A stretch of 64,000 bases of DNA from Actinomycetes bacterium. Lineage in GTDB: Bacteria > Actinomycetota > JAICYB01. The stretch is from the NCBI GenBank assembly GCA_025934435.1, contig JAICYB010000001.1, positions 131,293 through 195,292 on the forward strand. The letters are read 5' to 3'. This document shows, piece after piece, positions 31,738-46,471 of the stretch (positions within the stretch are counted from its first letter, which is position 1; the number at the start of each line of letters is the position of its first letter). The notes below the pieces were generated by a model. It saw only the letters and a list, made by a program, of their open reading frames with translations, was not told where the DNA came from and searched no databases. The position numbers were made by a program, and so were the translations under genes.

Positions 31738-32988
31738 ATCGGCGGCGCTTCGTCCCGCCGTCCATCCGATGATGCGGATGGCGGCGTTCGAAACCGGTTC
31801 GAGACTTGCGACGTGGATCTTGTCGACGGTGTCCTGCGAATCGAAGAGATACATCGGTGCGGCGAGGAAGTTCACGAGCGGGACGCCGGCTGTGTGATAG
31901 AAACCGCCGTCCGTCGTCGGCCACTCGCCGAAGGCGTCCGGCGGCAGGATGAACGAGCGTCTCACACCTTCGGTCCGCAGCGCGTGCTCGACGGCGTCGA
32001 TCAACTCGTCGTTGCGACTGACGAACCACCAGGCCGTCTCCGGCGCGTCCTTCGTGCGGAGCTCGCCGTTTTCACCGTAGGACTCTTTCGCGGTGTGCTC
32101 GAGATGTACTTCCAGCACGACGTGGTCCATCAGTTCGCGGTGCGCGTCGATGAACGCGCGGCAACCCACACCGTGCACCATGTGTCCCGCTTGCACGACG
32201 AAGATCATGTTGTGCGGACGGTGTGTTTGTGACGCCCAGTACTTCGCCTGCGCGAGGACGAGCGCTATCCCGGACGCGTCCTCGACGGCGGAGACCCACG
32301 GACCGTCGTGATGCGATCCGACGATGACGAACTCGTCCGAATCGCCGGGCAGCGTCCCGACGACGTTGTGACATGTGACGTCCTCGCGCGTTGACTTCAC
32401 GCTCAGGGTTGCCCGTTGTCCTTCGTGCAGTTTCGCACCCGTCGACTTCGACACCCAGACGCCGGGGATCGGACGCAGCTCTCCGTCGTACGGCACGTAG
32501 TAGTCGCAGGAGTCCCACGGTGCGTCGAAGATGCCGACGAACGCCTTCTTGCCGGCCTCGATGGACGGTTCCATGACGGCTTGGAGCCGGCGTCCGAACG
32601 GAAGCGTCTGATGGAGCGTGTCGAAGTCGCCGTCGGGATCGATCGTGCGGAGTGCGATCCGTTCCCGGACGAAGCTCTGCGGCCACGAGTTGAGCGTCAC
32701 GGTTTCGAGCGCGATCTCCTCGCCGAGCACACCCTCGACCGTGCCGGCTTGCGTATGGGGGAGCGGGAAGCAGTCGTGCGTCGTCCCGTCGACGGTCAGC
32801 GACCACTCCGTCGGCTCCCACCGCGGCAACGCAACGGGCTCGAGGTGTACCTCTTCGAGACCGAACTCGGTGAACCGCTCCGCGATGAAGCTCTCGCTGA
32901 AACGGTCTGCGTCGTAGCCCGGACGGCGGACACCCTGCGCGCAGATCGTTTCGATCCACGCCGTCATCTCCGCCGCCGACGGCCTCAC
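31714..32988 (-). CDS. M28 family zinc peptidase-like protein
   Basis: CHNVVGTLPGDSDEFVIVGSHHDGPW metal-binding region; start overlaps the glyA stop by 4 nt. Confidence 0.6.
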   Translation of the reverse strand: MRPSAAEMTAWIETICAQGVRRPGYDADRFSESFIAERFTEFGLEEVHLEPVALPRWEPTEWSLTVDGTTHDCFPLPHTQAGTVEGVLGEEIALETVTLNSWPQSFVRERIALRTIDPDGDFDTLHQTLPFGRRLQAVMEPSIEAGKKAFVGIFDAPWDSCDYYVPYDGELRPIPGVWVSKSTGAKLHEGQRATLSVKSTREDVTCHNVVGTLPGDSDEFVIVGSHHDGPWVSAVEDASGIALVLAQAKYWASQTHRPHNMIFVVQAGHMVHGVGCRAFIDAHRELMDHVVLEVHLEHTAKESYGENGELRTKDAPETAWWFVSRNDELIDAVEHALRTEGVRRSFILPPDAFGEWPTTDGGFYHTAGVPLVNFLAAPMYLFDSQDTVDKIHVASLEPVSNAAIRIIGWTAGRSAADLRTLSVP

Positions 32989-34250
32989 GACAGACCGGGG
33001 GCCTGGAAGGCCGAGGTCAGCTCCTTCACCTCACCGAAGATCGCGTCGATGGCGTCGTCGTCCTTGCGCTTCGCGGCCTCGACGGCTTCGTCCATGAAGC
33101 GCGCGATGTGCGACATCTCCGTCTCCTTCATCCCGCGTGAGGTGATCGCCGGCGTGCCGAGGCGGATGCCGGACGGCGAGAACGGTTTGCGCGGATCGAA
33201 CGGCACTGTGTTGTAGTTCAGCTCGATGCCGGCACGGTCGAGCGCCTTCGCCGCTTTCTTTCCGGTGATCTCTTTGTTGGTGAGATCGATCAGGATCAGG
33301 TGGTTGTCCGTTCCGCCGCTCACGAGGTCGAAGCCGCGCGCGAGCAACCCTTCCGCGAGCGCTTTCGCGTTCGCGACGATCTGGCGCGCGTACGTCTTGA
33401 AGTCTTCGGTCGCCGCTTCCTTCAGCGCCACGGCGATCGCCGCCGTCGTGTGATCGTGCGGACCACCCTGCAGACCGGGGAAGACGGCTTTGTCGAGCGG
33501 TTCGCTGTGTGCTTCGTCCGACATCAGCATCGCGCCGCGCGGACCGCGTAGCGACTTGTGCGTTGTGGTCGAGATGACGGGCGCGTAACCGACGGGGGAC
33601 GGGTGCGCACCGCCCGCGATGAGTCCGGCGATGTGCGCGATGTCGGCGACGAGAAGCGCGTCGACCTCTTTCGCGATCTCGGCGAAGGCCGGGAAGTCGA
33701 TCGTGCGCGGGATGGCCGTGCCCCCACAGAAGATGATCTTCGGACGATTCTGTTTGGCGATGTCGCGAACTTCGTCGAAGTCGATGCGTCCCGTATCACG
33801 GCGAACCCCGTACTGCACGGCGTTCATCCAACGACCGGAAAGCGTCGGTGCGGCGCCGTGGGTGAGGTGGCCGCCCATCGGGAGCGCCATGCCCATCACG
33901 GTGTCGCCGGGCTGCGCGAACGCGAAGTACACGGCGAGGTTCGCGGGGGAACCGGAGTACGGCTGCACGTTCGCGTGATCCACGCCGAACAGTGCCTTCG
34001 CGCGTTCCACGGCGAGCGTCTCGACCTCGTCGATCAGCTGGTTGCCTTCGTAGTAGCGCTTGCCGGCGTAACCCTCGGAGTACTTGTTCGTGAGGACGGA
34101 TCCCGTCGCCTCGAGCACCGCTTTGGAGACGTAGTTCTCGGACGGGATCAGCCGGATCTTGTCGCGCTGCCGGTCCTCCTCGGCACCGATGAGACGCGCG
34201 ATCTCGGGATCGGTGCTCGCAAGCACGGTGTCACGCTCGGTGAGCGTCAT
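32985..34250 (-). CDS. glyA: Serine hydroxymethyltransferase
   Basis: IRLIPSENYVSKAVLEATGSVLTNKYSEGYAGKRYY...HLTHG GlyA signature. Confidence 0.9.
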   Translation of the reverse strand: MTLTERDTVLASTDPEIARLIGAEEDRQRDKIRLIPSENYVSKAVLEATGSVLTNKYSEGYAGKRYYEGNQLIDEVETLAVERAKALFGVDHANVQPYSGSPANLAVYFAFAQPGDTVMGMALPMGGHLTHGAAPTLSGRWMNAVQYGVRRDTGRIDFDEVRDIAKQNRPKIIFCGGTAIPRTIDFPAFAEIAKEVDALLVADIAHIAGLIAGGAHPSPVGYAPVISTTTHKSLRGPRGAMLMSDEAHSEPLDKAVFPGLQGGPHDHTTAAIAVALKEAATEDFKTYARQIVANAKALAEGLLARGFDLVSGGTDNHLILIDLTNKEITGKKAAKALDRAGIELNYNTVPFDPRKPFSPSGIRLGTPAITSRGMKETEMSHIARFMDEAVEAAKRKDDDAIDAIFGEVKELTSAFQAPGLS

Positions 34251-34277
34251 ATGGGCCTCCTATATTCCGTTGCGACC

Positions 34278-34370
34278 GCCGAGGCCCAGGCGTAACGGCA
34301 AGCGGTCTATGCGTCGCTCCCCGCCGGTCGGTTCCGGCTGAGACGCCTACGCCAGTCGCGACGCGCGGCC
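34278..34370 (-). ncRNA. ZTP (pfl-motif) riboswitch in the glyA 5' leader
   Basis: Minus-strand RNA CGCGACUGGCGUAGG...GCCGGAACCGACCGGCGGGGAGCG...linker...ACGCCUGGGCC contains the GACUGGCG, CCGG..GGAGCG and CGCCUGGGC hallmarks. glyA is a classic ZTP-regulated gene. Confidence 0.55.
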
Positions 34371-34407
34371 AGCGTATGCGCCGCCCCCGACGCCGTCAAC
34401 GGGCCTG

Positions 34408-36789
34408 CTATCCCGTGCAGACCCCGAAGCACCCACGCGGGCGCGAACCGATCGTGAACCGCCGTCTCGCGGCCGTCGGATCGACGTTGCCGGAAGCGTC
34501 CTTCGCCTTGACGCGGAAGAGGTGGCTTCCGGGTCGCAGGTGCCGGTACGTCTTCGGGCTCGCGCACGGCCGGAACCGGTGGCGGTCGAGACTGCAGAGG
34601 AACGTCGCGTTCGGCGTCGACGAGCGGAACCAGAAGCGCGCGGTGTGCCCTCTGATCGACATGTGCCGTATCGCGGTGTTCGGCGCTCCGCCGGCCGCGG
34701 ACGTGATCTTCGTGACGAAGCCGTCGAAGCTGCCACCGGGGCTCGTCTGGAACGCGCCCGCGGTGACCGGGAAGTCGATCGAGTTCGTCCGACCGGTCAC
34801 GAACGTCCCGCCGGCATCATCGACCGCGAGCCCGAAGCCCTGTTCGAAGCCGGGCCCGCCGAGGTAGGTCGAAGAGTCGAGCGAGTCTCCGCCGACGGAC
34901 AGCGTCGTGACGAAGGCGTCGACCGTTCCGCCGTACGTCGGCTGCACCGCGCCCGGAGTCACCGGGAAGTCGGCGGAGTCCGTCTCTCCTGTGACGGATG
35001 CCGATCCGGCGGCGTCGACGGCGATCGCCTGTCCGTTCTCGGTATTGGCTCCGCCGAGATACGTCGAATAATCAAGCGACATCCCGTTGTCGGAAAGCTT
35101 CGTCACGAAGGCGTCGTTGATCCCGTGGATCGACGTTGCGAACGCGCCCGGCGTCACCGGGAAGTCTGAAGACTCGGATGTGCCCGCCACGTAGGCGTGA
35201 CCGGTGCTGTCGACCGCGACCGCGAAGGCCGTGTCGTAGGAGGATCCACCGAGGTAGGTGGAGTAGTCGAAAGATGTCCCGGACGGCGAGACCTTGGTCG
35301 CGAAGGCATCCACGAACCCACCGAACGCCGGCTGGAACGCGTTCGTCACCGGGAAGTCCGTGGACTGGGTCCGGCCCGATACATAGGCCGAGCCCGTCGC
35401 GTCGACGGCCACCCCGCCGACCTCCTCGATGTCCGATCCCCCGAGGTACGTCGAGTACACAAGTGATGTGCCGTCCGTGGAGATCTTCGACACGAACGCA
35501 TCGCTCGAGCCACCGACCGTCGTCTGCGCCGAGCCTGCGGTCACCGGGAGATTCGCGGAGTCGGTGAGACCGGCGACGTAGGCGCTTCCTGCCTGATCGA
35601 CGGCGATCCCAGCGCCTGAGTCACCTCCCGACCCTCCGAGGTACGTCGAGTAGAGCAGCGATGTTCCGTCCGCCGAGAGCTTGGTGACGAAGGCATCGTC
35701 GAAGCCGCCCAAGCTTCCGCTGAAAGCTCCGAGCGTCACCGGGAAATCGGTCGAGGACGTGTCACCGGTGATGTAAGCCGACCCGTTTCCGTCGACGGCG
35801 ATGCCCGTCCCTTGATCGCTATCCGACCCGCCGATGTACGTGGAGTACACGAGCGATGTTCCGTCCGGCGAGAGTTTCGTCACGTAGGCATCCGGGGAGA
35901 CGGCAAGCGTTGTTTGGAAGGCGCCCGGCGTCACCGGGAAATCGGCGGAGTCGGTCGATCCGGTGACGTAAGCGGACCCGCTGCTGTCGACGGCGATCGC
36001 CGAACCTTGATCGACGTCCGCCCCGCCGAGATATGTCGAGTAGTCCATCACTTGGGGGTCGATCACGAGTTGCTTCGAGGAGTCGTGGCGGCCGGCACGG
36101 AAGGAGAACCTCGAGCCGTGGAGCCGGATCGACGCCGGGACGTTCTTCCGCTTCCGATCGACGACTTGATAGGCGTGGGGCGACGTATGCGTCAAAGTTC
36201 CGGCAGGGGTTGCGATCTGCAGCCCACCGCGACGCAGTGCGAGGGACGTTGCACCGACGACGTCGAACGCCGCGTTCAGGGCGGCGTGCGGAGCGGCCAC
36301 GACGTCGTATTCGAGCGCGCCGCTTCGTCCCTCGTAGAACACGACGTCGACACCGGGCCAGAGGTCGTGGTAACGAACGCGCGAGAAGCCGCGTACGCCG
36401 CGCACCCACTTCGACGTGTCGCGTCCGGAGATGTAGTTCGACGTACCGGACTGTTGGCCGCTTCCGGTGATGAGGGGCGTGCGGTTCGCGCCGACGGGAC
36501 GCAAGCGGACGACCGCGGCTCGCTTCGCGTGGTTGCCGGTCAGGGACAGAACTATCTCGGTGGGTGTGAAGAAGATCGTCGCACCGGGTTCACGCGCGAG
36601 GTAACGCACGTGCGCGTCCGACTGTCCGCGATTCTCTTCGAAACGGAGGGGGAGGTGCGTCGTGGGCTTCGATGCGGGTCGCGCGACCTTCGGTGTAGCT
36701 CCCACGCTCGGCGGGACGAGGCACGCGGCCAGCGACAAGATGACGACGATCGCGCACAGATACGGCGCGCGGAAGAACAGCTTTCGCAT
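34408..36789 (-). CDS. Secreted SBBP (beta-propeller) repeat protein
   Basis: Start MRKLFFRAPYLCAIVVILSLAAC (ATG 36789). About 10 repeats of YSTYLGG...G.AVD..G.AYV.G.T.S.DFPVT.GAF. Confidence 0.75.
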   Translation of the reverse strand: MRKLFFRAPYLCAIVVILSLAACLVPPSVGATPKVARPASKPTTHLPLRFEENRGQSDAHVRYLAREPGATIFFTPTEIVLSLTGNHAKRAAVVRLRPVGANRTPLITGSGQQSGTSNYISGRDTSKWVRGVRGFSRVRYHDLWPGVDVVFYEGRSGALEYDVVAAPHAALNAAFDVVGATSLALRRGGLQIATPAGTLTHTSPHAYQVVDRKRKNVPASIRLHGSRFSFRAGRHDSSKQLVIDPQVMDYSTYLGGADVDQGSAIAVDSSGSAYVTGSTDSADFPVTPGAFQTTLAVSPDAYVTKLSPDGTSLVYSTYIGGSDSDQGTGIAVDGNGSAYITGDTSSTDFPVTLGAFSGSLGGFDDAFVTKLSADGTSLLYSTYLGGSGGDSGAGIAVDQAGSAYVAGLTDSANLPVTAGSAQTTVGGSSDAFVSKISTDGTSLVYSTYLGGSDIEEVGGVAVDATGSAYVSGRTQSTDFPVTNAFQPAFGGFVDAFATKVSPSGTSFDYSTYLGGSSYDTAFAVAVDSTGHAYVAGTSESSDFPVTPGAFATSIHGINDAFVTKLSDNGMSLDYSTYLGGANTENGQAIAVDAAGSASVTGETDSADFPVTPGAVQPTYGGTVDAFVTTLSVGGDSLDSSTYLGGPGFEQGFGLAVDDAGGTFVTGRTNSIDFPVTAGAFQTSPGGSFDGFVTKITSAAGGAPNTAIRHMSIRGHTARFWFRSSTPNATFLCSLDRHRFRPCASPKTYRHLRPGSHLFRVKAKDASGNVDPTAARRRFTIGSRPRGCFGVCTG

Positions 36790-36884
36790 CGCAAGATCCC
36801 CCATCCATCTCGGCGCGGTTTCACCACGGTCACGCTGCCGCGGAAAACGGTACAACAGAACCGCGCCGGCGTCATGGGTCGGAT

Positions 36885-36895
36885 GCGATATATCG
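36885..36895. promoter_or_regulatory. Perfect palindrome GCGATATATCG (third copy of the motif found upstream of the DUF4097-PadR operon)
   Basis: Seen directly, in the divergent region between the SBBP gene and the small gene at 36939. Confidence 0.3.
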
Positions 36896-36938
36896 GCCGG
36901 TGAAGTAGTTGCGGGCGTTTTGGGGCATCCTCGTTCCG

Positions 36939-37252
36939 TGGCCGAGATCCCGAAGACGCCCGTCGGACGCCATCTGGGCTGGGTGCTCGATGTGCTGCGA
37001 AGTGCTCCGTCCGCCGAAGAAGTGGGCAAGCACTTCTCGCGGACGCTCCTTTCGCAAACGCCCCCGGAAACGCTGGTGCAGATCTTGGAGCTGCGCGCGG
37101 GCGAGCTGCGGGGGTTCGTCCTCGGCCGATTCGAGCACGAAGCGCAGCGAGAGCTGATCGCCATCCTCGAGCGTCCGGACGGATCGGCCTACCGGTTGCA
37201 CGTGGGCGTCGACGATCAGCGGATCACGCAGTTCTCGCTGACGCCCGTGTAG
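36939..37252 (+). CDS. Hypothetical small protein
   Basis: GTG start assumed: VAEIPKTPVGRHLGWVLDVLRS...ILERPDGSAYRLHVGVDDQRITQFSLTPV. Start uncertain. Confidence 0.3.
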
Positions 37253-37273
37253 GTCCCTGATAGCGTTTCGGCG

Positions 37274-38425
37274 ATGCGGGGACAGGACTTGCGTCGTCAC
37301 GCCGCCGACGCGCGGATCCAGCTCACGGCGATCGGGCTCGTCATCGTTCTGACCTTCTTCGCCGTGGCCTTCCGTGGCGGCCCGAAGCCGATCGCGGTCG
37401 GCAAGATCGACAGCACGCCGTCGCCGACCGTCGTGCCGATCGTGCCGGAAGGCCGTCCGGTCCCGCCGGCCTTGAACCCGAACCCCCTGCTCGGCGCGAG
37501 CGGCTCGGGTCCCGGCGGAGCGCTCGCGTTCCGCGGGGCGGTGAACGTGCCGAAGGATCTGCAGTTCTTCCTCGTGGTCGGAAGCGACGCGCGTCCCGGT
37601 GAGGCCTACGACCACACGCGGGGTGATTCGTTACACATCGTCGCGATCGATCCGCGCATCCGGAAAGGGACGGTGCTCGGCATCCCGCGCGACAGCTACG
37701 TCCCCATCCCGGGACACGGCACGCAGAAGATCAATTCGGCGCTGGCGTACGGCGGCCCGCGATTGCTCGCGCAGACGATCCACAACCTGACGGGCTTCCC
37801 GATCTCGTATTACGCGGTGACGGGGTTCGACGGATTCGTGAAGATCACGAACGCCCTCGGCGGCGCCGACATCTACGTGCCGTACGACATGGACGATCGC
37901 GCGTACTCCGGCGCCGACTTCAAGAAGGGCTGGCACCACATGGACGGCAACCAGGTGCTTGCATTCAGCCGCGATCGTCACAGCCTTGCCAATGGAGACT
38001 TCGGCCGCTCGTTCAACCAGGGGAGCGTGATCCTCGACGCACTGACGAAACTGCGTGCGCAGACTTCGGACGAGAGCGGCATCCGCAAGTGGTTGCATAT
38101 TTTGTTCGCGTATGCGCGTCTCGATCTGAACTTCGAAGACGCCGTTCGTCTCGGCATCTTCGCCCGGCAGCTCGCTCCCGCCAACCTCATCAACGTCGTG
38201 ACGCCGGGTACATCTCGCAACGTCGGCGGACAGAGCGTCGTCGTGCTCGGCGACGACGCGTACCGGTTGTTCCGCGACATCGGCGCCGACGCGCTCGCCG
38301 ACGGCAAGGAGCACCGCGAAGCGCCGCCGCCGACGCCCAAGCCCGCCGCTCCGACGCCGACGCCCCGGCCGACACCGCCGGCGATCCTCCCGTCGCCGAC
38401 GCCGCACGGCATCCTTCCTCTCTAG
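37274..38425 (+). CDS. LCP (LytR-CpsA-Psr) family cell-envelope phosphotransferase
   Basis: N-terminal TM; FFLVVGSDARPGE...DSLHIVAID...GIPRDSYVPIPGHGTQKINSA LCP core; Pro-rich tail. Confidence 0.8.
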   Translation: MRGQDLRRHAADARIQLTAIGLVIVLTFFAVAFRGGPKPIAVGKIDSTPSPTVVPIVPEGRPVPPALNPNPLLGASGSGPGGALAFRGAVNVPKDLQFFLVVGSDARPGEAYDHTRGDSLHIVAIDPRIRKGTVLGIPRDSYVPIPGHGTQKINSALAYGGPRLLAQTIHNLTGFPISYYAVTGFDGFVKITNALGGADIYVPYDMDDRAYSGADFKKGWHHMDGNQVLAFSRDRHSLANGDFGRSFNQGSVILDALTKLRAQTSDESGIRKWLHILFAYARLDLNFEDAVRLGIFARQLAPANLINVVTPGTSRNVGGQSVVVLGDDAYRLFRDIGADALADGKEHREAPPPTPKPAAPTPTPRPTPPAILPSPTPHGILPL

Positions 38426-38434
38426 AGTCGAGGC

Positions 38435-39934
38435 GTGTCCACCGACGTGGGTCTCCTTCGCGCCGACGCCGTCATCGTCGGCGGCGGTCTGGCCGGGCTC
38501 TGGGCTGCGCTGCATCTGCCCGCGGAATGGGAGGTCATCGTCGTCGACAAGGGGCGCGGTCCCGATCACGGTTCGTCGCCGTGGGCGCAGGGCGGCATGG
38601 CCGTCGCAGCCGGTCCGGACGATTCACCTTCTCTCCACGCCGCCGACACCTTCCGCGCCGGAGCGGATACGTGCCACGAAGATGCCGTCCAAGCGCTGGT
38701 GGACGAAGCACGCGAAGCGCTCGACGAGCTCGTGTTGCTCGGCTGCGCGTTCGACCGCGCCGACGACGGGTCGTTCGATCTGAACCGCGAAGGCGGGCAG
38801 TCGGTCGCGCGGTCCGTCCACGCCGCGGACGCGACCGGACGGGAGATCATGCGGGTCGTCGTCGCCGAAGCGCGGAAGCGCGCGCAACGGATCGTCGGGA
38901 GCGCTTCCCGGATCCTTCTCGACGACGGACGATGCGCGGGCGTGCGCGTCTCGACCGACCACGGCGAGGTCGACGTCCTCGGACGATCGACCCTCCTCGC
39001 CGTCGGCGGATGCGGTGCGCTCTACGAACAGACGACGAACCCGGAGACCGCGACCGGAGACGGCATCGCCCTTGCCTACGACGCGGGCGCCGACGTCGCC
39101 GACTGCGAATTCGTGCAGTTCCACCCCACGGCGCTCGGCGCGGGCGGCACGAGACGGGTCCTGCTCACCGAAGCGCTCCGCGGTGACGGAGCGATCGTTG
39201 TCGACGCGTCCGGTAAACGCTTCCTTCTCGACGTGCATCCCGACGGCGAGCTCGCGCCGCGAGACGTCGTCGCTCGCGCGATCGCCGAAGCCGGCGAAGC
39301 GTTCCTCGACGCGCGCCCGATCGGCGCGGCGCAGCTTCGCACGCGGTTCCCGAACGTGACGAAGGCCGCCGCGGACGCGGGCTTCGACCTCACGGCGAGC
39401 CCCGTCCCCATCGCACCGGCGGCGCATTACTTCCTCGGCGGCGTCGCCACCGACATCTGGGGACGCACGACGATCCCCGGTCTGTTCGCGGCGGGGGAGT
39501 GCGCAGCGACCGGTGTCCACGGCGCGAACCGCATGGCGGGTAACTCGCTCACCGAAGCCGTCGTCTTCGGACGCCGCGCCGCCATGACCATGACCGATGA
39601 AGCCGAGCCGACCGGGGTCCCCGTGGTCGAAGACGACAGCGAGCCCGCCGTGCGTGCGATCGGCGCCGACGACTGGGCGAAGGTCCGGCACGCGATGTCG
39701 TCGGGTGCCGGACTCATCCGGACGAAGCACTCGCTCGAGCAGGCGCTCCGAGCTTTGGCCGGCGTGAGTGGTTCGTCCTCCGTGAAAGCGGCGGCGACGG
39801 CCGGAGCGTTGATCTGCCGCTCGGCCCTCGAGCGGATCGAGAGCCGAGGCGTCCATTTCCGGTCCGACCATCCGGACCGCCAGCGCGGATGGGATGGGCG
39901 CCACGTTACGCTCGGCGAAAAGGAGAATCGATGA
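38435..39934 (+). CDS. nadB: L-aspartate oxidase
   Basis: DAVIVGGGLAGLWAAL FAD fold; RSVHAADATGREI; PAAHYFLGGV active-site region. Confidence 0.7.
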   Translation: MSTDVGLLRADAVIVGGGLAGLWAALHLPAEWEVIVVDKGRGPDHGSSPWAQGGMAVAAGPDDSPSLHAADTFRAGADTCHEDAVQALVDEAREALDELVLLGCAFDRADDGSFDLNREGGQSVARSVHAADATGREIMRVVVAEARKRAQRIVGSASRILLDDGRCAGVRVSTDHGEVDVLGRSTLLAVGGCGALYEQTTNPETATGDGIALAYDAGADVADCEFVQFHPTALGAGGTRRVLLTEALRGDGAIVVDASGKRFLLDVHPDGELAPRDVVARAIAEAGEAFLDARPIGAAQLRTRFPNVTKAAADAGFDLTASPVPIAPAAHYFLGGVATDIWGRTTIPGLFAAGECAATGVHGANRMAGNSLTEAVVFGRRAAMTMTDEAEPTGVPVVEDDSEPAVRAIGADDWAKVRHAMSSGAGLIRTKHSLEQALRALAGVSGSSSVKAAATAGALICRSALERIESRGVHFRSDHPDRQRGWDGRHVTLGEKENR

Positions 39935-41727
39935 GCGATCTGCCGCGCTGGGATATGACGCCGGTGTTCCCGTCATTCGAGTCGGAGGCATTCGAGGACT
40001 CGTACGGGTGGCTGCTCACGCGCATCGCAGATCTGAAGGAGACGTTCGAGAAGCGCGGCATCCGCAAGCTCGAGGACGGAACGGTCGACGACGAGCTCGT
40101 CTACGCCTTCGAAGATGTCGTCGAGCGGTTCAACGACATCTACGAGCTCGCGGGCAAGATACGCGCGTACATCCACGCGTTCGTCACGACCAACGCCAAG
40201 GACGACGACGCTCAGGGACGCAGCTCGAAGTTCGAGATCGAAACGATCGACGTCGGCAAGCTGGAGACGCGTTTCGTCGCGTGGATCGGTTCCCTCGACG
40301 TCGAAACGCTCATCGAGAAGTCCGCCGTCGCCGCCGACCACGAATTCTTCGTCCGGCGCTGTGCCGCGTTCGCGGAGCGTCAGCTGACCGAAGCGGAAGA
40401 AGATCTGATCTCGAGCCTCGGGCCGGCGGGCATCAATGCGTGGGCGAAGCTGCACGGCAATGTCTCGTCGCGGGTGATGGTCGACGTCGGCAAGCCGGAC
40501 GGATCCACGCAGCGTCTCCCGATCGCCGCTATCCCGGGCCTCCTGGAGGATCCGGACGAGGCCGTTCGCTCCGCGGCATTCCATGCGTCCATCGAAGCCT
40601 GGCCGACCGTCGAGGTGCCGCTCGGTGCTGCGCTCAATTCGATCAAGGGCTGGCAGAACGAGATCGGCGACCGCCGGGGATGGCCGGACTCGATCGAGCC
40701 GTCCCTTTGGAACAACAACGTCGACCGCGCGACGCTCGAAGCGATGCAGCAAGCGTGCATCGAATCGTTCCCCGACTTCGCGCGGTACATGAACGCGAAA
40801 GCGAAGCTCATCGGCAAGGACCGGCTCGCGTGGTGGGACCTGTCCGCCCCGATCGGCGAGACCGGTCGCTCCTGGAACTGGGACGAAACCGCGTCATTCA
40901 TCGTCGAGCAGTTCGGTACGTACTCGGACCGACTCGCGAACCTGGCGTCTCGCGCGTTCCTCGAATGCTGGATCGATGCCGAGCCGCGCGAGGGCAAGCG
41001 GCCGGGCGGGTTCTGCATGCGCGTGCAGCACGACGAGTCGCGCATCTTCGTGAACTTCACGAATACGTTCCAAGCCGTCACAACCGTGGCGCACGAGCTC
41101 GGCCACGCGTTCCACAACCTGAACCTCGCGAACAGGACGCCGCTCCAGCGCCGTACGCCCATGGCGCTCGCCGAGACCGCGTCCACCTTCTGCGAAACGA
41201 TCGTCGGCGGCGCATTGCTGTCGAACGCGTCGGCCGAAGAGAAGCCGTCGCTCCTGAACGGCGATCTCATCCGGGACATGTTGATCGTCGTCTCGATCCA
41301 CAGCCGGTTCCTCTTCGAGAAAGCCGTCTACGAAGGGCGGCGCAAGCGCGAGCTTTCGCCGGCCGAGCTGTGCAAGACGATGGCGGACGCCCAGCTGGAG
41401 GTCTTCGGCGACGCGATCGACCCGAACGGTCTGCATCCGTACATGTGGTGCGTCAGCCCGCACTATTACGGGTCGCAGTACTACAACTGGCCGTACACCT
41501 TCGGGCTGCTGTTCGGGCTCGGTCTGTACAAGCGCTTCGAGGCCGACCCGGACGGCTTCCGCTCCGGATACGACGAGCTGCTGTCGTCCACGGGCACGGC
41601 CGACGCGGCGACGCTCTGCGCGCGCTTCGACATCGACGTGCGCAGTGTGGACTTCTGGCGATCGAGTCTGGACGTCTGCCGTTCACGCATCGACGAATTC
41701 GTCGGGCTTGCTTCGGTGCCCGTTTAG
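39931..41727 (+). CDS. M3 family oligoendopeptidase (PepF-like)
   Basis: Start MSDLPRWDM after AAAAGGAGA RBS; ATG overlaps nadB stop (ATGA); HELGHAFHNL zinc motif. Confidence 0.8.
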   Translation: MSDLPRWDMTPVFPSFESEAFEDSYGWLLTRIADLKETFEKRGIRKLEDGTVDDELVYAFEDVVERFNDIYELAGKIRAYIHAFVTTNAKDDDAQGRSSKFEIETIDVGKLETRFVAWIGSLDVETLIEKSAVAADHEFFVRRCAAFAERQLTEAEEDLISSLGPAGINAWAKLHGNVSSRVMVDVGKPDGSTQRLPIAAIPGLLEDPDEAVRSAAFHASIEAWPTVEVPLGAALNSIKGWQNEIGDRRGWPDSIEPSLWNNNVDRATLEAMQQACIESFPDFARYMNAKAKLIGKDRLAWWDLSAPIGETGRSWNWDETASFIVEQFGTYSDRLANLASRAFLECWIDAEPREGKRPGGFCMRVQHDESRIFVNFTNTFQAVTTVAHELGHAFHNLNLANRTPLQRRTPMALAETASTFCETIVGGALLSNASAEEKPSLLNGDLIRDMLIVVSIHSRFLFEKAVYEGRRKRELSPAELCKTMADAQLEVFGDAIDPNGLHPYMWCVSPHYYGSQYYNWPYTFGLLFGLGLYKRFEADPDGFRSGYDELLSSTGTADAATLCARFDIDVRSVDFWRSSLDVCRSRIDEFVGLASVPV

Positions 41728-42554
41728 ATCCTGGCGCGCACGAACTCGCCGATCTTCGCGACGGCTTCGTCCGACTCCGGCATATAGCCGGCGAAGATGT
41801 GCCAGACGTGGAACATGTCCGGCACGATCTCGATCGTGACGTCGACGCCGGCGTCCTTCGCGCGTTCCGCCACGTGCACGGCGTCATCGCGAAGCATCTC
41901 GTCGGACGCGGCATGGACGAGCAGCGGCGGGAACCCGCTGAGGTCGCCGTAGACCGGTGATGCGAGCGGCGAGCGAGGATCGGCGCCCCCGAGATACCAG
42001 TCGGCTGATTCCTTCAAGCGCGCTGCGTTCAACATCGCGTCCGCCGTCGGTGGGTGTTCCGTCGAGAGGTCCGTCCACGGCGAGATGAGGACGGCGCACG
42101 CCGGCAGTGGGATGCGCTCTTCGCGCAGTTGCAGCATCAGCGCGAGTGCGAGCCCGCCGCCGGCCGAGTCTCCGGCGACGGCGATGTGTTCGGCGGCGTT
42201 GCGTTCGAGCAGCCACCGGTACGCGGCGACGGCATCGTCGACCGCGGCGGGACACGGATGCTCCGGCGCGAGCCGGTACTCGATCGCGAGCACTCGCGCG
42301 TGAGCTTCGCGCGAGATCGCCGCCGTGAGACGGCGGTGCGTCCGCGGGGACGAGTGCACGTACGCGCCGCCGTGCAGATACAACACGGCGCGGTCGCGCG
42401 ACGCGTTCGGCGCTTCGACCCATTCCGCGGGAACGCCGCCCGCTTGCGCCGCGGTGAACGTGACGTCGTCGGGCGGCGGCATGAGACCCGATGCTGCTTC
42501 GGAGTTCGCTCGACGTTGCTCGAGGGTGGACTCCTGGTTGTTCCGTTCGCGCAT
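41724..42554 (-). CDS. Alpha/beta hydrolase fold-3 esterase/lipase (HSL family)
   Basis: VLYLHGGAY oxyanion motif, GDSAGGGLA nucleophile elbow. Start set at MRERNNQ (ATG 42554). Confidence 0.75.
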   Translation of the reverse strand: MRERNNQESTLEQRRANSEAASGLMPPPDDVTFTAAQAGGVPAEWVEAPNASRDRAVLYLHGGAYVHSSPRTHRRLTAAISREAHARVLAIEYRLAPEHPCPAAVDDAVAAYRWLLERNAAEHIAVAGDSAGGGLALALMLQLREERIPLPACAVLISPWTDLSTEHPPTADAMLNAARLKESADWYLGGADPRSPLASPVYGDLSGFPPLLVHAASDEMLRDDAVHVAERAKDAGVDVTIEIVPDMFHVWHIFAGYMPESDEAVAKIGEFVRARI

Positions 42555-42592
42555 CGCTTTCGCGATGAACTGGAACGCGTCGCTCGGCACGC

Positions 42593-43000
42593 TTACAAGT
42601 ACAGCAATTCCGAGTCGCCTTCGTCGTCGGCGACGACGCGCGAGCAGGTGGGGCAGTACCAGCGCGCTTCCATCGGTGTGCCGCAGTCGCCGTGGCGAAC
42701 CGGCTCGCCGCCCGCTGAGCGCGCGCCCCAGTCCGCGAGCAGGCGGAGCGCGCCGGCGAGCTCGCGCCCGGAGGCGGTGAGCTCGTAGCTGAACCGGACG
42801 GGACGCTGCGAATACGGACGCGCGAGGACGATGCCCTCCGCCTCGAGCCGCTTCAGCCGCGAGGACAGGATGTTCGGCGCGATGCCCTCGACCGTCTCCG
42901 ACAGGTCGTTGAACCGCCGGGGCCCGCCGAGCAAGGCGTCGACGATCAGGAGCATCCACCGGTCGCCGACGCGCTCGAGGGTCGCCGAGAGCGGATCCAT
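42593..43000 (-). CDS. HxlR-family winged-helix regulator with C-terminal Cys-rich (zinc-ribbon-like) extension
   Basis: WMLLIVDALLGGPRRFNDLSETVEGIAPNILSSRLKRLEAEGIV; tail HGDCGTPMEARWYCPTC. Confidence 0.75.
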   Translation of the reverse strand: MDPLSATLERVGDRWMLLIVDALLGGPRRFNDLSETVEGIAPNILSSRLKRLEAEGIVLARPYSQRPVRFSYELTASGRELAGALRLLADWGARSAGGEPVRHGDCGTPMEARWYCPTCSRVVADDEGDSELLYL

Positions 43001-43065
43001 GGTCTTGACCTCCGGAATATCCAGTAGTAACTTGCAAGTTACAAGTTACCAGCGTAGGAGACGAT

Positions 43066-43941
43066 ATGACAACGATCTCGGATGTTCAGGAAGCGGTCTC
43101 GCAGGTCGCGGGCTCGGTGGGCCGGCAGGTGGTCGGGATCAGCGGGAGGCGATCTGCCGGTTCCGGCGTGGTCATCGCGAAGGGCCGCGTCCTGACGAAC
43201 GCCCACAACCTGTCCGGTGAGGAGGTCACCGTGACCTTCCCCGACGGGCGCACGGCCGTCGCGAAGCCGCTCGGTGTCGACACCGACGGCGACGTCGCCG
43301 TCCTCGAGGTCGACACCAACGGTGCGCCGGCGATCGACTGGGGTAAGGATGCCCCCTCGGTCGGCGCACCGGTCTTCGCGCTCGCGAACCCCGGCGGGCG
43401 CGGCCTCCGCGTCACCTTCGGCCTCGTCTCGGGGACCGAGCGGACCTTCCGCGGCCCCCGCGGACGCAAGATCGGCGAATCGATCGAACACACGGCGCCG
43501 CTGCTTCCCGGTTCGTCCGGGGGGCCGATCGTCGACGAGTCCGGGCGTCTGCTCGGCATCAACACGCACCGCCTCGGCGAAGGGTTCTACCTCGCGATCC
43601 CCGCGGACGAAGCCCTGAAGCAGCGCATCGACACCCTCGCGCGCGGCGAATCGCCGAAGCAGGTTCGGCTCGGCATCGCGATCCTTCCGCCGCACATCGC
43701 GAAGCGCCTTCGCCGGTCGGTCGGTCTGCCCGAAGCGGAGGGCGTGCTCGTCCGCGGCGTGGAGGACGATTCACCGGGCGCGCGCGCGGGTCTTGTCCAA
43801 GGAGATCTCATCACCGCCGTCGGCGGCCAAGCGATCGGCGGCGTCGACGATCTCATGAGCGCATTGCAATCGGCGTCCGGCGACATCGAACTGAAGATCC
43901 TGCGCGGTACGGAAGAACGAACCGTGAAAGTGAGTTTCTGA
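43066..43941 (+). CDS. HtrA/DegP-like trypsin-fold serine protease with PDZ domain (no signal peptide)
   Basis: GSGVVIAKGRVLTNAHNL (His), DVAVLEV (Asp), GSSGGPIV (Ser); C-terminal PDZ. Confidence 0.8.
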   Translation: MTTISDVQEAVSQVAGSVGRQVVGISGRRSAGSGVVIAKGRVLTNAHNLSGEEVTVTFPDGRTAVAKPLGVDTDGDVAVLEVDTNGAPAIDWGKDAPSVGAPVFALANPGGRGLRVTFGLVSGTERTFRGPRGRKIGESIEHTAPLLPGSSGGPIVDESGRLLGINTHRLGEGFYLAIPADEALKQRIDTLARGESPKQVRLGIAILPPHIAKRLRRSVGLPEAEGVLVRGVEDDSPGARAGLVQGDLITAVGGQAIGGVDDLMSALQSASGDIELKILRGTEERTVKVSF

Positions 43942-44069
43942 CGACATCGGCGGTGGAAGACGTCGCGGACCTCGAGCGTCTCATGACGGGCGACATCAGC
44001 CGCACGCTCCCGATGACGGTGCTGCGCGAGCAGGGCCCGGTCGGCCTCGACATCGCCCGGCGGGAGCTC

Positions 44070-44112
44070 GAACGCGATATATCTTGACCCGACCGATGAA
44101 CGCGATATATCG
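44070..44112 (+). promoter_or_regulatory. Two direct copies of GAACGCGATATATC(G) (palindromic core GATATATC) bracketing a TTGACC -35; putative PadR operator/promoter
   Basis: Copies at 44070-44083 and 44098-44112. TTGACC at 44084-44089 with a TATATC -10-like element about 16 nt downstream; gene ATG at 44143. Confidence 0.4.
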
Positions 44113-44142
44113 TGAGTGCGAACTCACGAAGGGGGTCGCGTC

Positions 44143-44949
44143 ATGGATCGGTGGGTCGTAGCAGATGACTTCTCGCAGGATCTCTCCGACGTCTCGAGCG
44201 TGACGGTTCGCGTCGTCGCCGGCGACGTCACGGTGACTGCGGGCGCGAAGTCGAGCGTGGAGGTTCGCCGGCTGTCCGGCACAGATGTGCACGTCGAGTA
44301 CCGCGACGGATCGCTCCTCGTCGCGCAGCCCGATCCGGACACGGCTCCGATCGAGCGCTTCATCAAGATGTTCACGGAAGGCTCGCGACACCGCTGCAGT
44401 GTTGCCGTGACGGCAGCGCCCGGCGCGAAGATCTCGATCACGACCGTCTCCGCGGAAGTCGTCGTTTCGGGCTTCGACGGCGGCACGAACGTGAAGACCG
44501 TTTCCGGCGAAGTGACGCTGTCGCGTCTCGGGAAAGATCTCGACGTGAAGACGGTGTCCGGCGAGATCCAAGCGAAGGACGTCGCCGGCGGGCTCAAGCT
44601 GAAGACGGTTTCCGGCGACATCGCGATCGTCGACGGCAACTGCCGCTGGGTGGATGCGAAAGCCGTCTCCGGCGACGTGCTCCTCGATCTCGATCTGGAT
44701 CCGTCCGGCACCTACGACGTGTCGACGGTTTCCGGCGCCGTCGCCGTGCGAACGACCGCGGAGCCGAATCTGGCGATCGATGCATCGTCCGTTTCCGGAC
44801 GCCTCACTTCCGATTTCGGTATCGCGTGGAACGAGAAGCCGGGCCGGAAGCACCTGTCCGAGACGATCGGTTCCGGCGGCGCGCGTCTGTGGGTGAAGAC
44901 GGTGTCCGGCGATCTTCGCGTACTGCGAGGGAGACAGGCCGTAGCGTGA
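44143..44949 (+). CDS. DUF4097 family beta-strand repeat protein (putative adhesin-like)
   Basis: Repeated VKTVSGEV/VKTVSGDI strands. RBS GAAGGGGG. Stop overlaps the PadR GTG start (GTGA). Confidence 0.7.
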   Translation: MDRWVVADDFSQDLSDVSSVTVRVVAGDVTVTAGAKSSVEVRRLSGTDVHVEYRDGSLLVAQPDPDTAPIERFIKMFTEGSRHRCSVAVTAAPGAKISITTVSAEVVVSGFDGGTNVKTVSGEVTLSRLGKDLDVKTVSGEIQAKDVAGGLKLKTVSGDIAIVDGNCRWVDAKAVSGDVLLDLDLDPSGTYDVSTVSGAVAVRTTAEPNLAIDASSVSGRLTSDFGIAWNEKPGRKHLSETIGSGGARLWVKTVSGDLRVLRGRQAVA

Positions 44950-45671
44950 GCAAGCTGTTCGGTCACGGTGACCTTCGCCTGTGGCTGCTGAAGCTCATCG
45001 ACGAGCGTCCGCGGCACGGATACGACATCATCGCCGGTCTCGAGGAGCAGTTCCTCGGGTTCTACACCCCCTCGCCGGGAACGGTGTACCCGCGTCTCGC
45101 CGCGCTCGAGTCCGAAGGATTGATCGAACAGGTCGAGGCGGCCGCCACGGCGGAGCACGGCGGGGGCGCGGAGGGACGAAAGGTCTACCGGCTCACCGAC
45201 AAAGGACGCGCCGAACTCGATGCGCGAAGTCAGGAGCTCAAGGAGCTCAAGGAGCGGCTGACCCGTTCGGCGCGCGAGATCGCGCGTGACATCCGCGACG
45301 AAGTGAAGTCCGCCGTGCGCGATCTGCGGACGGAAGTGAAACGCGCCGCGGTCGAAGTGCGTCGTGACGAACGGCGTGCCGGACGCGTGACACGCGAGAC
45401 CGCGCATGAAGCGGCACGAGCGGGACGCGACGCCGCACGAGCCGGACGAGACGCCGCGCGCGCTGCGCGTGACGTCGCGAAAGGTGCGTCCGGCGAGATC
45501 AAGACGATGTGGCGCTCGCTGCATGCCGATCTCGACGGCTTCGTGTCGGATGTCGTTTCGGCCGCCCGCCGTCACGATCTCGATCGTGAGCGGCTCGCCG
45601 ACCTTCGGACGGCTCTCCGCGAAGCGCGCGCCGCGATCCTCGAAGCACTCGAGTCGGATCGGCGCGACTAG
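44946..45671 (+). CDS. PadR family transcriptional regulator with long Arg/Ala/Glu-rich C-terminal helical extension
   Basis: LRLWLLKLIDERPRHGYDIIAGLEEQFLGFYTPSPGTVYPRLAALESEGLIE...KVYRLTDKGRAEL PadR wHTH. Confidence 0.75.
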   Translation: MSKLFGHGDLRLWLLKLIDERPRHGYDIIAGLEEQFLGFYTPSPGTVYPRLAALESEGLIEQVEAAATAEHGGGAEGRKVYRLTDKGRAELDARSQELKELKERLTRSAREIARDIRDEVKSAVRDLRTEVKRAAVEVRRDERRAGRVTRETAHEAARAGRDAARAGRDAARAARDVAKGASGEIKTMWRSLHADLDGFVSDVVSAARRHDLDRERLADLRTALREARAAILEALESDRRD

Positions 45672-46471
45672 GACGAAGGTCTCGGCACGGTCACCTTCCG
45701 GTTCAGGTCGGTGATGCGTGCTTCGAAGTGCAGCGTGATCCCCGAGAGCGCTTTCAGCTTCTGCGTGAGCTGAGCGTTCTGGCTCGCGAACGTCACGTCG
45801 ATCGCGAGACGCCGCATGATCTTGTCCTTGCGGCCGGACCAGACGCCGAGCGTCGCGGTCTTCACCGACCGACGGACGCGCTCGCGCTCGGCGGCGGAGA
45901 GCTGCGTCACTCCGCTCGCCGCCGTGACGCCGAAATCGTTCGCGATGGACACAAGTCCGTTCAGAACGGCGCCTACGTCGAGCTTCGCGCTCACCTTGTC
46001 GGTATCGACCGTCCCGACAAGCCCGCCGGGACCGACGCTCGGCGTTCCGGAGATCCAGCTGCCGACGTCGATGCGTTCGAGCGGGGACGTACCGCCGGAC
46101 GTGCCGCCGAGTCCGGTGAGGCTGTCGAGCTGCGACGGCGGGACGGGAACGATCCTCTTGCCTTGTTCGATGAAGGCGTTCGTCCCCGTGGACAGGATGT
46201 GCGTCGTATCGCTCTTGTTGCGATCGAACCGCTTCACGTTCACGTCGAGCACGGGAAGCGTCCCAGGTGAATCGAACGAGAACGTACCGTCCACACCGAA
46301 GCCCGCCGGCTGCTCGCCGGCTGCGGCCGTCTGCATAACCACGTGCAGGGATCCCGACCGGATCTTGCCGAGGTTCCCGGCGACGTCGTGGAGCTCGCTC
46401 GCCGCGTTGTGCGTCGACGGCGTTGCGCACGCGAAACACGCGATCAGGATCAGTGGGACGAGTCGCTTCAT
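45668..46471 (-). CDS. Lipoprotein, hypothetical (last gene of the RRE-M50 operon)
   Basis: MKRLVPLILIACFAC lipobox; 4-nt overlap with the upstream gene. Confidence 0.5.
   Translation of the reverse strand: MKRLVPLILIACFACATPSTHNAASELHDVAGNLGKIRSGSLHVVMQTAAAGEQPAGFGVDGTFSFDSPGTLPVLDVNVKRFDRNKSDTTHILSTGTNAFIEQGKRIVPVPPSQLDSLTGLGGTSGGTSPLERIDVGSWISGTPSVGPGGLVGTVDTDKVSAKLDVGAVLNGLVSIANDFGVTAASGVTQLSAAERERVRRSVKTATLGVWSGRKDKIMRRLAIDVTFASQNAQLTQKLKALSGITLHFEARITDLNRKVTVPRPSS

Follow-up and report, generated by a model that had tools for sequence, protein, structure and literature searches.

Two palindromic sites in the promoter of a DUF4097-padR operon, located in a 64-kb window (the whole stretch of actinobacterial DNA analysed here), are probably operators at which the PadR-family protein encoded by the second gene would repress its own operon (sites A and B, Table 1). 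This assignment, to which we give a probability of about 0.8, is drawn from sequence comparisons. The motif would represent the autorepression operator of a YqjI-type PadR protein, and the operon a new example of a known regulator type; it is read in this way because a PadR gene is the sole feature common to all motif loci. An autoregulatory PadR operator had already been proposed in the initial annotation, and binding by the protein is now favoured by the promoter position of the sites, their presence in 20/20 other loci, symmetric changes in orthologs and the occurrence of the same core in Proteobacteria.

Table 1. Coordinates of the sites and genes discussed (window positions)
Feature	Position	Strand	Evidence or remark
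SBBP beta-propeller/DUF7948 gene, secreted product; candidate target of site 1	34408..36789	-	Pfam
Site 1, TGCGATATATCGGC	36884..36897	.	10-bp core perfect, outer positions degenerate
ORF_12_N stand-alone small gene, 104 aa; alternative target of site 1	36938..37252	+	PF18042, E 1.4e-13
LCP gene, after ORF_12_N	37274-38425		PF03816
HtrA/PDZ second-gene remnant, 44 codons	43953..44087	+	tblastn against intact HtrA2
Candidate operator site A, CGCGATATATCTTG	44073..44086	+	directly 5' of the -35 and overlapping it
Predicted -35 hexamer, TTGACC	44084..44089	+	consensus scan
Candidate operator site B, CGCGATATATCGTG	44101..44114	+	14-bp near-palindrome, predicted -10 inside
Predicted -10, TATCGT (TANNNT type)	44108..44113	+	consensus scan only; 18-nt spacer from TTGACC
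DUF4097/Toastrack gene, operon gene 1	44143..44949	+	Pfam PF13349, E 1.6e-20, 74 bits
PadR-family regulator gene, 241 aa	44946..45671	+	Pfam PF03551, E 2e-20

Occurrence of the motif in the window

With both strands scanned, GATATATC was found in the window only at 36887, 44076 and 44104. Shuffled sequences gave an expected count of 0.07, and three copies were reached in 0/100 shuffles, which bears out the earlier claim that the motif lies far above chance. The 8-mer had been described as consisting entirely of A and T, but this is true only of its central ATATAT. Similarly, the reported three occurrences hold for the 10-mer GCGATATATC, the form truly present three times, and not for the 11-mer GCGATATATCG, which is exact at 36885-36895 and 44102-44112, while 44074-44084 reads GCGATATATCT and differs in the final base. 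Of the start positions given previously, 36885 stands, and 44072 and 44101 are off by 1-2 nt. The 28-bp start-to-start distance between the operon copies was reproduced, as was their bracketing of TTGACC, the first T of which is the last base of the site A copy (GCGATATATCT). Both operon copies belong to an 18-nt direct repeat, GAACGCGATATATC[T/G]TGA, at 44070-44087 and 44098-44115. A REP-like or mobile-element repeat was ruled out, as there are only three copies and the flanks of site 1 are unlike those of the operon sites.

The DUF4097-padR operon and its promoter

The DUF4097 protein gives a weak LiaG-like NCBIfam match, under the cutoff, and by eye neither a signal peptide nor a transmembrane segment is obvious in it. 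The GTG start of padR overlaps the DUF4097 stop by 4 nt (GTGA), the pair is translationally coupled, and the adjacency of the two genes is kept in all relatives. The PF03551 match of PadR covers residues 14-92 (73 bits; cutoff, 27), its PDB matches are PadR-family chains (e.g. 6jyi and 5zhc), and the protein carries a helical C-terminal extension of ~140 aa. The operon is flanked upstream by the HtrA remnant, of which an intact HtrA2 counterpart was found by tblastn in L002-L004, L021-L023 and L028, and downstream by a convergent gene of unknown function. No HAAS partner (DUF1700, DUF1129 or DUF1048) was matched by Pfam at E<=0.01 in the PadR extension, the DUF4097 protein or the neighbouring genes; PspC and LiaF genes are absent from the operon, and no paralogs of PadR, DUF4097 or SBBP were found within the window. 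Rfam gave no match at the gathering threshold in 33000-46000, and a ZTP aptamer was recovered by relaxed Rfam search only.

The predicted -10 falls within site B, and the conservation of this site could partly stem from promoter function instead of repressor binding. The final codons of the HtrA2 remnant ORF and its stop, a TGA inside the -35 box, coincide with site A. The canonical PadR box, ATGT-N8(-10)-ACAT, was not found, there being no ATGT/ACAT pair in 44040-44145.

PadR, encoded 0.8 kb downstream, would bind sites A and B, with a dimer recognizing the 14-bp dyad CGCG-ATATAT-CG(C/T)G through its GC-rich arms, which flank an AT-rich core at a distance of ~10 bp from each other. With site B over the -10 and site A next to the -35, PadR on the DNA would keep RNA polymerase from the promoter, and the DUF4097(Toastrack)-padR operon would thus be repressed by its own product in a negative feedback loop. 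Some signal would then free PadR from the DNA. As PadR here lacks the Ni-binding His/Cys tail of E. coli YqjI, this signal probably works through the Toastrack partner, the conserved C-terminal extension or both.

Conservation among actinobacterial loci

The operon was compared across 21 actinobacterial DUF4097-PadR loci, i.e. the window and 20 others with readable upstream DNA. This comparison, suggested in the initial annotation as a check, favoured the operon sites: ACGCGATATATCGTGA is present at the equivalent promoter position in all 20 other loci, across which PadR identity is 50-87%. In the promoter alignment of the 21 loci, ACGCGATATATCGT is the sole block conserved to at least 90%, the promoters having otherwise diverged. 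Site B is found in 21/21 loci (16 of them with the identical sequence, five with 1-2 changes), and 14/21, the window counted, have at least two motif copies, most of them with site A in the same sequence and position; site A is missing in 7/21. TTGAC lies 11-13 nt 5' of site B in 19/21 loci, those that lack site A among them, and farther upstream in L008 (40 nt) and L029 (31 nt), while the spacing in L028 would require another -10 register. In ~337 kb of sequence from these genomes, the operon promoter is, apart from site 1, the sole place with the ATATAT-core motif.

The operator varies where the recognition region of the ortholog differs. The distant ortholog L033 has CGCGACATGTCGCG, a perfect palindrome in which both halves are altered, and another distant ortholog, L009, has CACGACATATCGCG twice as well as CGCGATATAACGTG. 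Replacement of P by A/T within SPSPG was rejected as the explanation of these variants, as L007 has PSAG and retains GATATATC. An Arg preceding 'PS' in L009 and L033 may be linked to them, although with n=2 it is a weak candidate.

Relation to E. coli YqjI/NfeR

Among proteobacterial homologs, five (from Sodalis, Acerihabitans, Aeromonas, Parvibaculaceae and Hyphomonadaceae) have [A/C]GATATATC[T/G] once or twice within ~100 bp 5' of the PadR gene, and these loci, fetched by genome scan, have no DUF4097. In the two alphaproteobacterial loci of 66% GC, 20 kb contain no GATATATC other than the promoter copy. The nfeR region of E. coli K-12 also carries [A/C]GATATATC[T/G] (L042 positions 2519 and 2749), and the nfeF promoter and the nfeR promoter each have a 20-nt repeat with AGATATATCT, the two copies lying 230 bp from each other. 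GATATATC is constant among the sites of E. coli, Sodalis and the Alphaproteobacteria, whose outer positions differ greatly.

Autorepression by YqjI, with footprints at both promoters, was reportedly described by Wang and colleagues in 2011 and 2014. Repression of nfeF by NfeR/YqjI has been established by experiment (PMC7981267). Over the wHTH (residues 7-105), the window PadR is 33% identical to E. coli NfeR (BLASTP, E 2e-16), and the two proteins have in common the FGHG(D/E)LRL lead-in before helix 1 and the YxPSPG..YP.L recognition region; a curated NCBIfam model for the YqjI/NfeR type does not exist. Thus, the window system shares with YqjI/NfeR, which is Ni-responsive and controls nfeF (yqjH) and itself, the wHTH motifs and two palindromes of identical GATATATC core in the promoter region of the regulator, the core being common to the window operator CGCGATATATCGCG and the E. 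coli operator AGATATATCT. The two systems differ in the outer operator arms (CGCG in the window, TTAG/TCAG in E. coli), in the distance between sites (28 bp against 230 bp), in the host, here an actinomycete, and in the partner gene, which is Toastrack/DUF4097 in the window and a divergent ferric(-chelate) reductase gene, nfeF/yqjH, in E. coli. In addition, the proteobacterial homologs carry His/Gly/Arg-rich tails of 40-60 residues, whereas the window PadR (MSKLFGHG) and all its actinobacterial orthologs begin M/V-S-K/R-L-F-G-H-G, with no His/Cys-rich N-terminal tail; unlike NfeR, the window protein has its long C-terminal extension instead. Full-text literature searches yielded irrelevant papers only for the motif strings, and no operator sequence for the binding sites of NfeR.

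Comparison with other PadR systems

PadR proteins are known to bind inverted repeats spaced by ~10 bp, with AT-rich DNA between them, that overlap their own -35/-10, and the canonical operators are ATGT-N8-ACAT (PadR/LmrR) and TACT-N11-12-AGTA (C. difficile cdPadR1) (PMC5050560). The window sites share with these the half-site distance, the AT-rich core, the arrangement of two sites over the -35/-10 of the own promoter and, as proposed here, a role in autoregulation, and are unlike them in having CGCGA/TCGCG half-sites and a compact dyad (14 bp).

In Listeria monocytogenes, the operon lmo0599-0601 encodes a PadR protein (LltR), DUF1700 and DUF4097, and LltR autorepression is experimental, the operon being up more than 100-fold in an lltR mutant (PMC6624303). 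The PadR gene shares an operon with DUF4097 in both systems, but the gene order is reversed in the window, where DUF4097 comes first, and the DUF1700/HAAS membrane protein is missing from it. The same source describes the Listeria DUF4097 protein as an exoprotein, unlike the window protein as judged by eye. For the Toastrack-PadR neighbourhood, Ravi et al. (2024; PMC11237479) propose the role of a signalling module in envelope stress. The window has in common with such HAAS-PadR-like wHTH/Toastrack systems the position of PadR next to Toastrack, while the HAAS domain (DUF1700/DUF1129) that defines them was not detected here by Pfam.

Alternative readings of the operon sites

The conserved sequence could be a promoter element alone, i.e. 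an unusual or extended -10 with an upstream element, and no repressor site. The predicted -10 within site B and the contact of site A with the -35 would suit this, and a -10 region should be conserved anyway. However, the same 14-16 nt are repeated 5' of the -35, where they have no -10 role, and this second copy is dispensable, as seen in the loci that lack site A. The element is also a dyad altered in both halves in L033, its core recurs at the promoters of homologous proteobacterial regulators in other spacing and context, and site 1 has no -35 partner. A mere promoter element is considered very improbable. Slightly less so, although still quite unlikely, is binding of the palindromes by a transcription factor other than the adjacent PadR; further regulators are indeed encoded in the window, but only a YqjI-type PadR is consistently found beside the motif in Actinomycetota, Alphaproteobacteria and Gammaproteobacteria, the five proteobacterial loci have no DUF4097, and the operator varies in orthologs with a different recognition region. 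PadR might also activate instead of repress from site A, whose centre, near -41 relative to the predicted start, would, going by the consensus scan, stand roughly at a class II activator position. Yet the universally conserved site is B, over the -10, one locus in three has no site A, and the characterised relatives NfeR and LltR are repressors, and activation is held to be as improbable as a promoter element alone.

Site 1 and the extent of the regulon

Site 1 falls in a 148-bp divergent intergenic region, 95 bp 5' of the SBBP ATG (minus strand) and 41 bp 5' of the ORF_12_N GTG. The initial annotation had assigned SBBP and the small gene to the same regulon, but conservation that could back this is absent, and the comparative check that favoured the operon sites went against site 1, which is not kept in relatives. 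The motif is found upstream of ORF_12_N in 0/6 distinct ortholog loci, and site 1 was accordingly rejected as a conserved operator of this gene, nine homologs of which (104-107 aa) were identified. The SBBP gene and the site-1 DNA form a lineage-specific insertion, SBBP being missing between glyA and ORF_12_N in L015, L020, L037 and L040. The closest SBBP homologs, at most 52% identical, are repeat-driven paralogs from many phyla; since SBBP is without a close ortholog, its hits are unusable for judging the conservation of site 1.

There are roughly even odds that site 1 arose by chance or has no function, and that the PadR regulon of this genome consists of its own operon only. Besides the ORF_12_N result, ~270 kb of related genomes hold no extra-operon ATATAT-core site, and a promoter scan of both strands around site 1 found no sigma-70-like promoter that it could overlap. 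Site 1 matches the operon sites at 3/6 outer palindrome positions. With an 18-nt matrix derived from the operon sites of the orthologs, it scores 10.8 bits; those sites themselves score 21-32 bits, while random positions in the window reach 11. On the other hand, given the operon sites, further exact copies of the 10-bp palindrome CGATATATCG are expected just 0.009-0.04 times per window, depending on the Markov order, and it is from this chance expectation (~0.01-0.04) that site 1 may be real. Its intergenic position also speaks against chance, as do the proteobacterial and E. coli sites, in which degenerate outer positions likewise surround a constant GATATATC, and the two flanking genes, both of which encode cell-envelope proteins and would fit a Toastrack-type system. 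Site 1 may thus be a genuine extra PadR site, more likely serving SBBP. If site 1 is functional, the PadR repressor of the operon would also control SBBP, the ORF_12_N-LCP unit or both.

The assignment of sites A and B leaves the current view of PadR regulation unchanged. It does tie the widespread, uncharacterised PadR-Toastrack pair of uncultured soil Actinomycetota to the sole characterised regulator of its type, E. coli YqjI/NfeR, provides a testable operator assignment for this pair and offers a putative repressor/operator pair ready for use in high-GC hosts. As the operator core is seemingly shared between phyla whose sensing parts differ, the system is a useful case for studying the exchange of signal input on a fixed DNA-binding module. 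A bolder reading, tentative and less likely to be right than wrong, is that the YqjI-type wHTH and GATATATC form such a module from Gammaproteobacteria to Actinomycetota. In this module, the proteobacterial His/Cys-rich tail, Ni-binding in E. coli YqjI, would have been swapped for a cytoplasmic Toastrack and C-terminal helical extension in soil Actinomycetota, and here the module would also have captured SBBP and possibly ORF_12_N-LCP. If true, a small envelope-related regulon would be observed in mid-expansion via site 1.

Occurrence of the palindromes and organization of the operon

The core GATATATC occurs at positions 36887, 44076 and 44104 of the window and nowhere else on either strand, against 0.07 copies expected; three copies were reached in none of 100 dinucleotide-preserving shuffles of the 64-kb window, whose G+C content is 63-70% along its whole length. 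The initial annotation's triple palindrome is therefore real; its positions were off by up to 2 nt, but the 28-bp spacing of the copies upstream of the DUF4097-PadR operon was correct. Two of the copies, at 36885 and 44102, match the 11-mer GCGATATATCG exactly, and the one at 44074 has a terminal T. The two operon copies (sites A and B) form an 18-nt direct repeat, GAACGCGATATATC[T/G]TGA.

A consensus scan found one promoter-like site, TTGACC and TATCGT with an 18-nt spacer, which places the last base of site A on the first base of the predicted -35 and the predicted -10 within site B. The DUF4097 ATG lies 40 bp 3' of site B and is preceded by a GGGGG Shine-Dalgarno sequence. The GTG start codon of the PadR gene shares GTGA with the DUF4097 stop, which suggests translational coupling of the two genes. 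The right half of site B is the starting point of an inverted repeat whose arms are 8 bp long (TCGTGAGT-GCGA-ACTCACGA); L015 and L023, the closest relatives, have kept it. Two other loci (L001 and L002) have different hairpins instead, with an anti-SD-like CCTTCT/CTCCTC paired with the ribosome-binding site.

Positions of genes, sites and other sequence features in the window
Feature	Position	Strand	Remark
glyA (SHMT)	32985-34250	-	
ZMP/ZTP (pfl) riboswitch aptamer	34277-34369	-	glyA leader
Lineage-specific insertion	~34387-36922		SBBP and 5' region
SBBP/DUF7948 beta-propeller gene	34408-36789	-	secreted; Pfam
10-bp inverted repeat	36811-36820 / 36859-36868		
Site 1	36884-36897		distant copy
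CAT[C/G]CT	36926-36931		
ORF_12_N gene	36938-37252		stand-alone; Pfam
LCP gene	37274-38425		Pfam
Syntenic block	38435-45671		
HtrA protease	43066-43941		Pfam
44-codon ORF	43953-44087		PDZ remnant
Site A	44073-44086	+	
Predicted -35 (TTGACC)	44084-44089		
Site B	44101-44114	+	
Predicted -10 (TATCGT)	44108-44113		
8-bp-arm inverted repeat	44110-44129		
DUF4097 'Toastrack' gene	44143-44949		Pfam
PadR gene	44946-45671		Pfam
PadR codon 41	45066-45068		

Conservation of the putative operator in Actinomycetota

Many homologs of the window PadR (50-87% identity) were found in soil Actinomycetota MAGs and metagenomes. The loci compared came from protein-based scans free of motif bias (8 genome and 16 metagenome loci), and one more was added from the ORF_12_N look-up. 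Conservation upstream of orthologous operons had been proposed initially as a check, and there ACGCGATATATCGTGA was kept ~30-60 bp 5' of the DUF4097 start in all 20 loci with readable DNA upstream of the gene (in L021 with a single core substitution). When 21 promoters, the window included, were aligned on site B, the columns at least 90% conserved were ACGCGATATATCGT only, the remainder having diverged. TTGAC lies 11-13 nt 5' of site B in 19 of them (exceptions L008 and L029). A second site is present in 14 of the 21, mostly as site A joined to the -35 (CGCGATATATCTTGAC), and L008 has three; site B stands alone in seven. Across ~337 kb of group sequence the ATATAT-core dyad is found outside this promoter only once, at site 1 of the window.

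Altered dyads stand at the same position in two distant DUF4097-PadR pairs, with PadR identities of 34-45%: CGCGACATGTCGCG, a perfect 14-bp palindrome with both halves altered, in L033, and CACGACATATCGCG twice plus CGCGATATAACGTG in L009. These variants point to a dyad with co-varying halves, of the general form CGCGAyATrTCGCG, in which an AT-rich core is flanked by GC-rich arms whose centres are 10 bp apart. PadR proteins are described as having recognition helices ~34 Å apart, half-sites ~10 bp apart with a required AT-rich spacer, and paired sites that overlap the -35/-10 of their own genes (PMC5050560). The window dyad resembles the operators described there in half-site distance, AT-rich core and the placement of two sites over -35/-10.

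PadR residue 41 precedes 'PS.G', the start of the recognition helix. The residue at this point is T, S, A or I at every locus with a GATATATC operator and Arg in L009 and L033, with operators GACATATC and GACATGTC; on these two data points, it may be a specificity determinant.

Gene order is shared with several relatives (L015, L002-L004 and L021-L023): FAD-oxidoreductase, M3 peptidase, (alpha/beta hydrolase, HtrA, HtrA2), DUF4097 and PadR. L015 has neither the hydrolase nor the two HtrA genes, and in L002-L004 an additional ~1.6 kb separates HtrA2 from the promoter. The 44-codon ORF is what remains of the C-terminal PDZ part of a second HtrA paralog. L002-L004, L021-L023 and L028 carry this paralog intact, so most of it has been lost from the window genome. 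The TGA stop of the intact HtrA2 falls within the -35 TTGAC in L021 and L023, and in L028 HtrA2 ends directly 5' of site A.

Relationship to YqjI/NfeR and proposed mechanism

Proteobacterial homologs with the RLFGHGDLRL motif were recovered by genome scan from Parvibaculaceae, Hyphomonadaceae, Acerihabitans, Sodalis and Aeromonas (L010-L014). Their His/Gly-rich N-terminal tails identify them as YqjI-like. Each has one or two copies of [A/C]GATATATC[T/G] no more than ~100 bp 5' of the regulator gene, and in the two alphaproteobacterial loci (L010 and L011, 66% GC) this promoter copy is the sole GATATATC in 20 kb. In Escherichia coli K-12, the nfeF(yqjH)-nfeR(yqjI) intergenic region holds a 20-nt repeat, AAT[C/T]AGATATATCTAA[A/T]TAA, once per promoter and 230 bp apart, the nfeR-proximal copy being a perfect 18-bp palindrome. 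Wang and colleagues, in J Bacteriol in 2011 and 2014, reportedly found that YqjI represses itself and footprints a single site close to each promoter, with REP elements in the almost 200 bp between the two. The overall layout of these sites fits that of the E. coli repeats. The window PadR is 33% identical to NfeR (E 2e-16), with the YTPSPG..YP.L recognition region aligned. NfeR is a repressor of nfeF, with repression relieved by nickel (PMC7981267).

The window PadR and E. coli NfeR share the recognition region and the GATATATC core in the regulator's own promoter. The metal-binding tail is missing from the actinobacterial PadRs, which have a conserved helical extension of ~140 aa in its place and an obligatory Toastrack (DUF4097) partner; a DUF4097 neighbour was found at none of the five proteobacterial loci.

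The best-supported reading is that the operon palindromes serve as operators for autorepression by the adjacent PadR, as initially proposed; conserved position, dyad co-variation and the promoters of NfeR-type homologs all argue for it. The putative operator can be assigned more precisely to the YqjI/NfeR type of PadR sites, whose GATATATC core is deeply conserved. Occupancy of site B by a PadR dimer would obstruct the -10, and a further dimer bound at site A, beside the -35, would strengthen this block. A pure promoter element without operator function is unlikely, because the same sequence is repeated 5' of the -35, the L033 dyad is altered in both halves, and the motif accompanies homologous regulators in other phyla. 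Since the PadR gene is the motif's only constant neighbour, binding by a different protein is improbable too, and activation through site A is hard to reconcile with site B, over the -10, being the universal site.

One proposal sees Toastrack-PadR neighbourhoods as modules for envelope-stress signalling (PMC11237479), and autorepression has been shown experimentally for the Listeria PadR-DUF1700-DUF4097 operon (PMC6624303). Unlike that operon, the window pair has no HAAS/DUF1700 partner detectable with Pfam, and thus at the Pfam level its membership in that signalling system is not apparent.

The distant site 1

The SBBP and ORF_12_N genes diverge from a 148-bp region that contains site 1 (TGCGATATATCGGC). 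The suggestion that both belong to the PadR regulon is unproven: ORF_12_N has nine homologs, and the motif is upstream of it at none of six distinct ortholog loci (62-75% identity). At four of these six, ORF_12_N is directly flanked by the divergent glyA and its leader. The window differs in that the SBBP gene and ~130 bp of 5' DNA with site 1 are inserted here, bounded by 'cagcgta' of the glyA promoter and by 'ggggcatcct' shortly before ORF_12_N. This ~2.5-kb insertion, from the glyA leader/promoter to ORF_12_N, is lineage-specific; a collection of 5.8 billion proteins held no close SBBP ortholog, the best match being 52% identical.

Also against a conserved role, site 1 matches at only three of six outer dyad positions and scores 10.8 bits, against 21-32 for the ortholog operon sites and up to 11 at random positions, with an 18-nt matrix from the ortholog operon sites that partly reflects promoter flanks, not operator bases. 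No sigma-70-like promoter overlapping it was found. In favour of a real site, the exact CGATATATCG is expected just 0.009-0.04 times per window, and the proteobacterial sites differ widely from one another at their outer positions. The chances that site 1 is functional are about even. If it is, SBBP would be a likelier original target than ORF_12_N, since the insertion that carries SBBP also brought in the site.

The stretch from site 1 to the SBBP start codon contains a perfect 10-bp GC-rich inverted repeat (CGGCGCGGTT / AACCGCGCCG, 38-nt loop), which might fold into a stem-loop within the SBBP leader. CAT[C/G]CT lies 6-12 nt 5' of the ORF_12_N start codon in the window and in L015, L018, L020, L037, L040 and L041, and no clear Shine-Dalgarno sequence was seen before ORF_12_N at these loci; the hexamer resembles the -10 of a transcript with no leader or a very short one. 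The ZMP/ZTP aptamer was recovered by relaxed search only (38.6 bits against the Rfam gathering score of 39, E 3e-5), and L015, L020, L037 and L040 have the same glyA leader.
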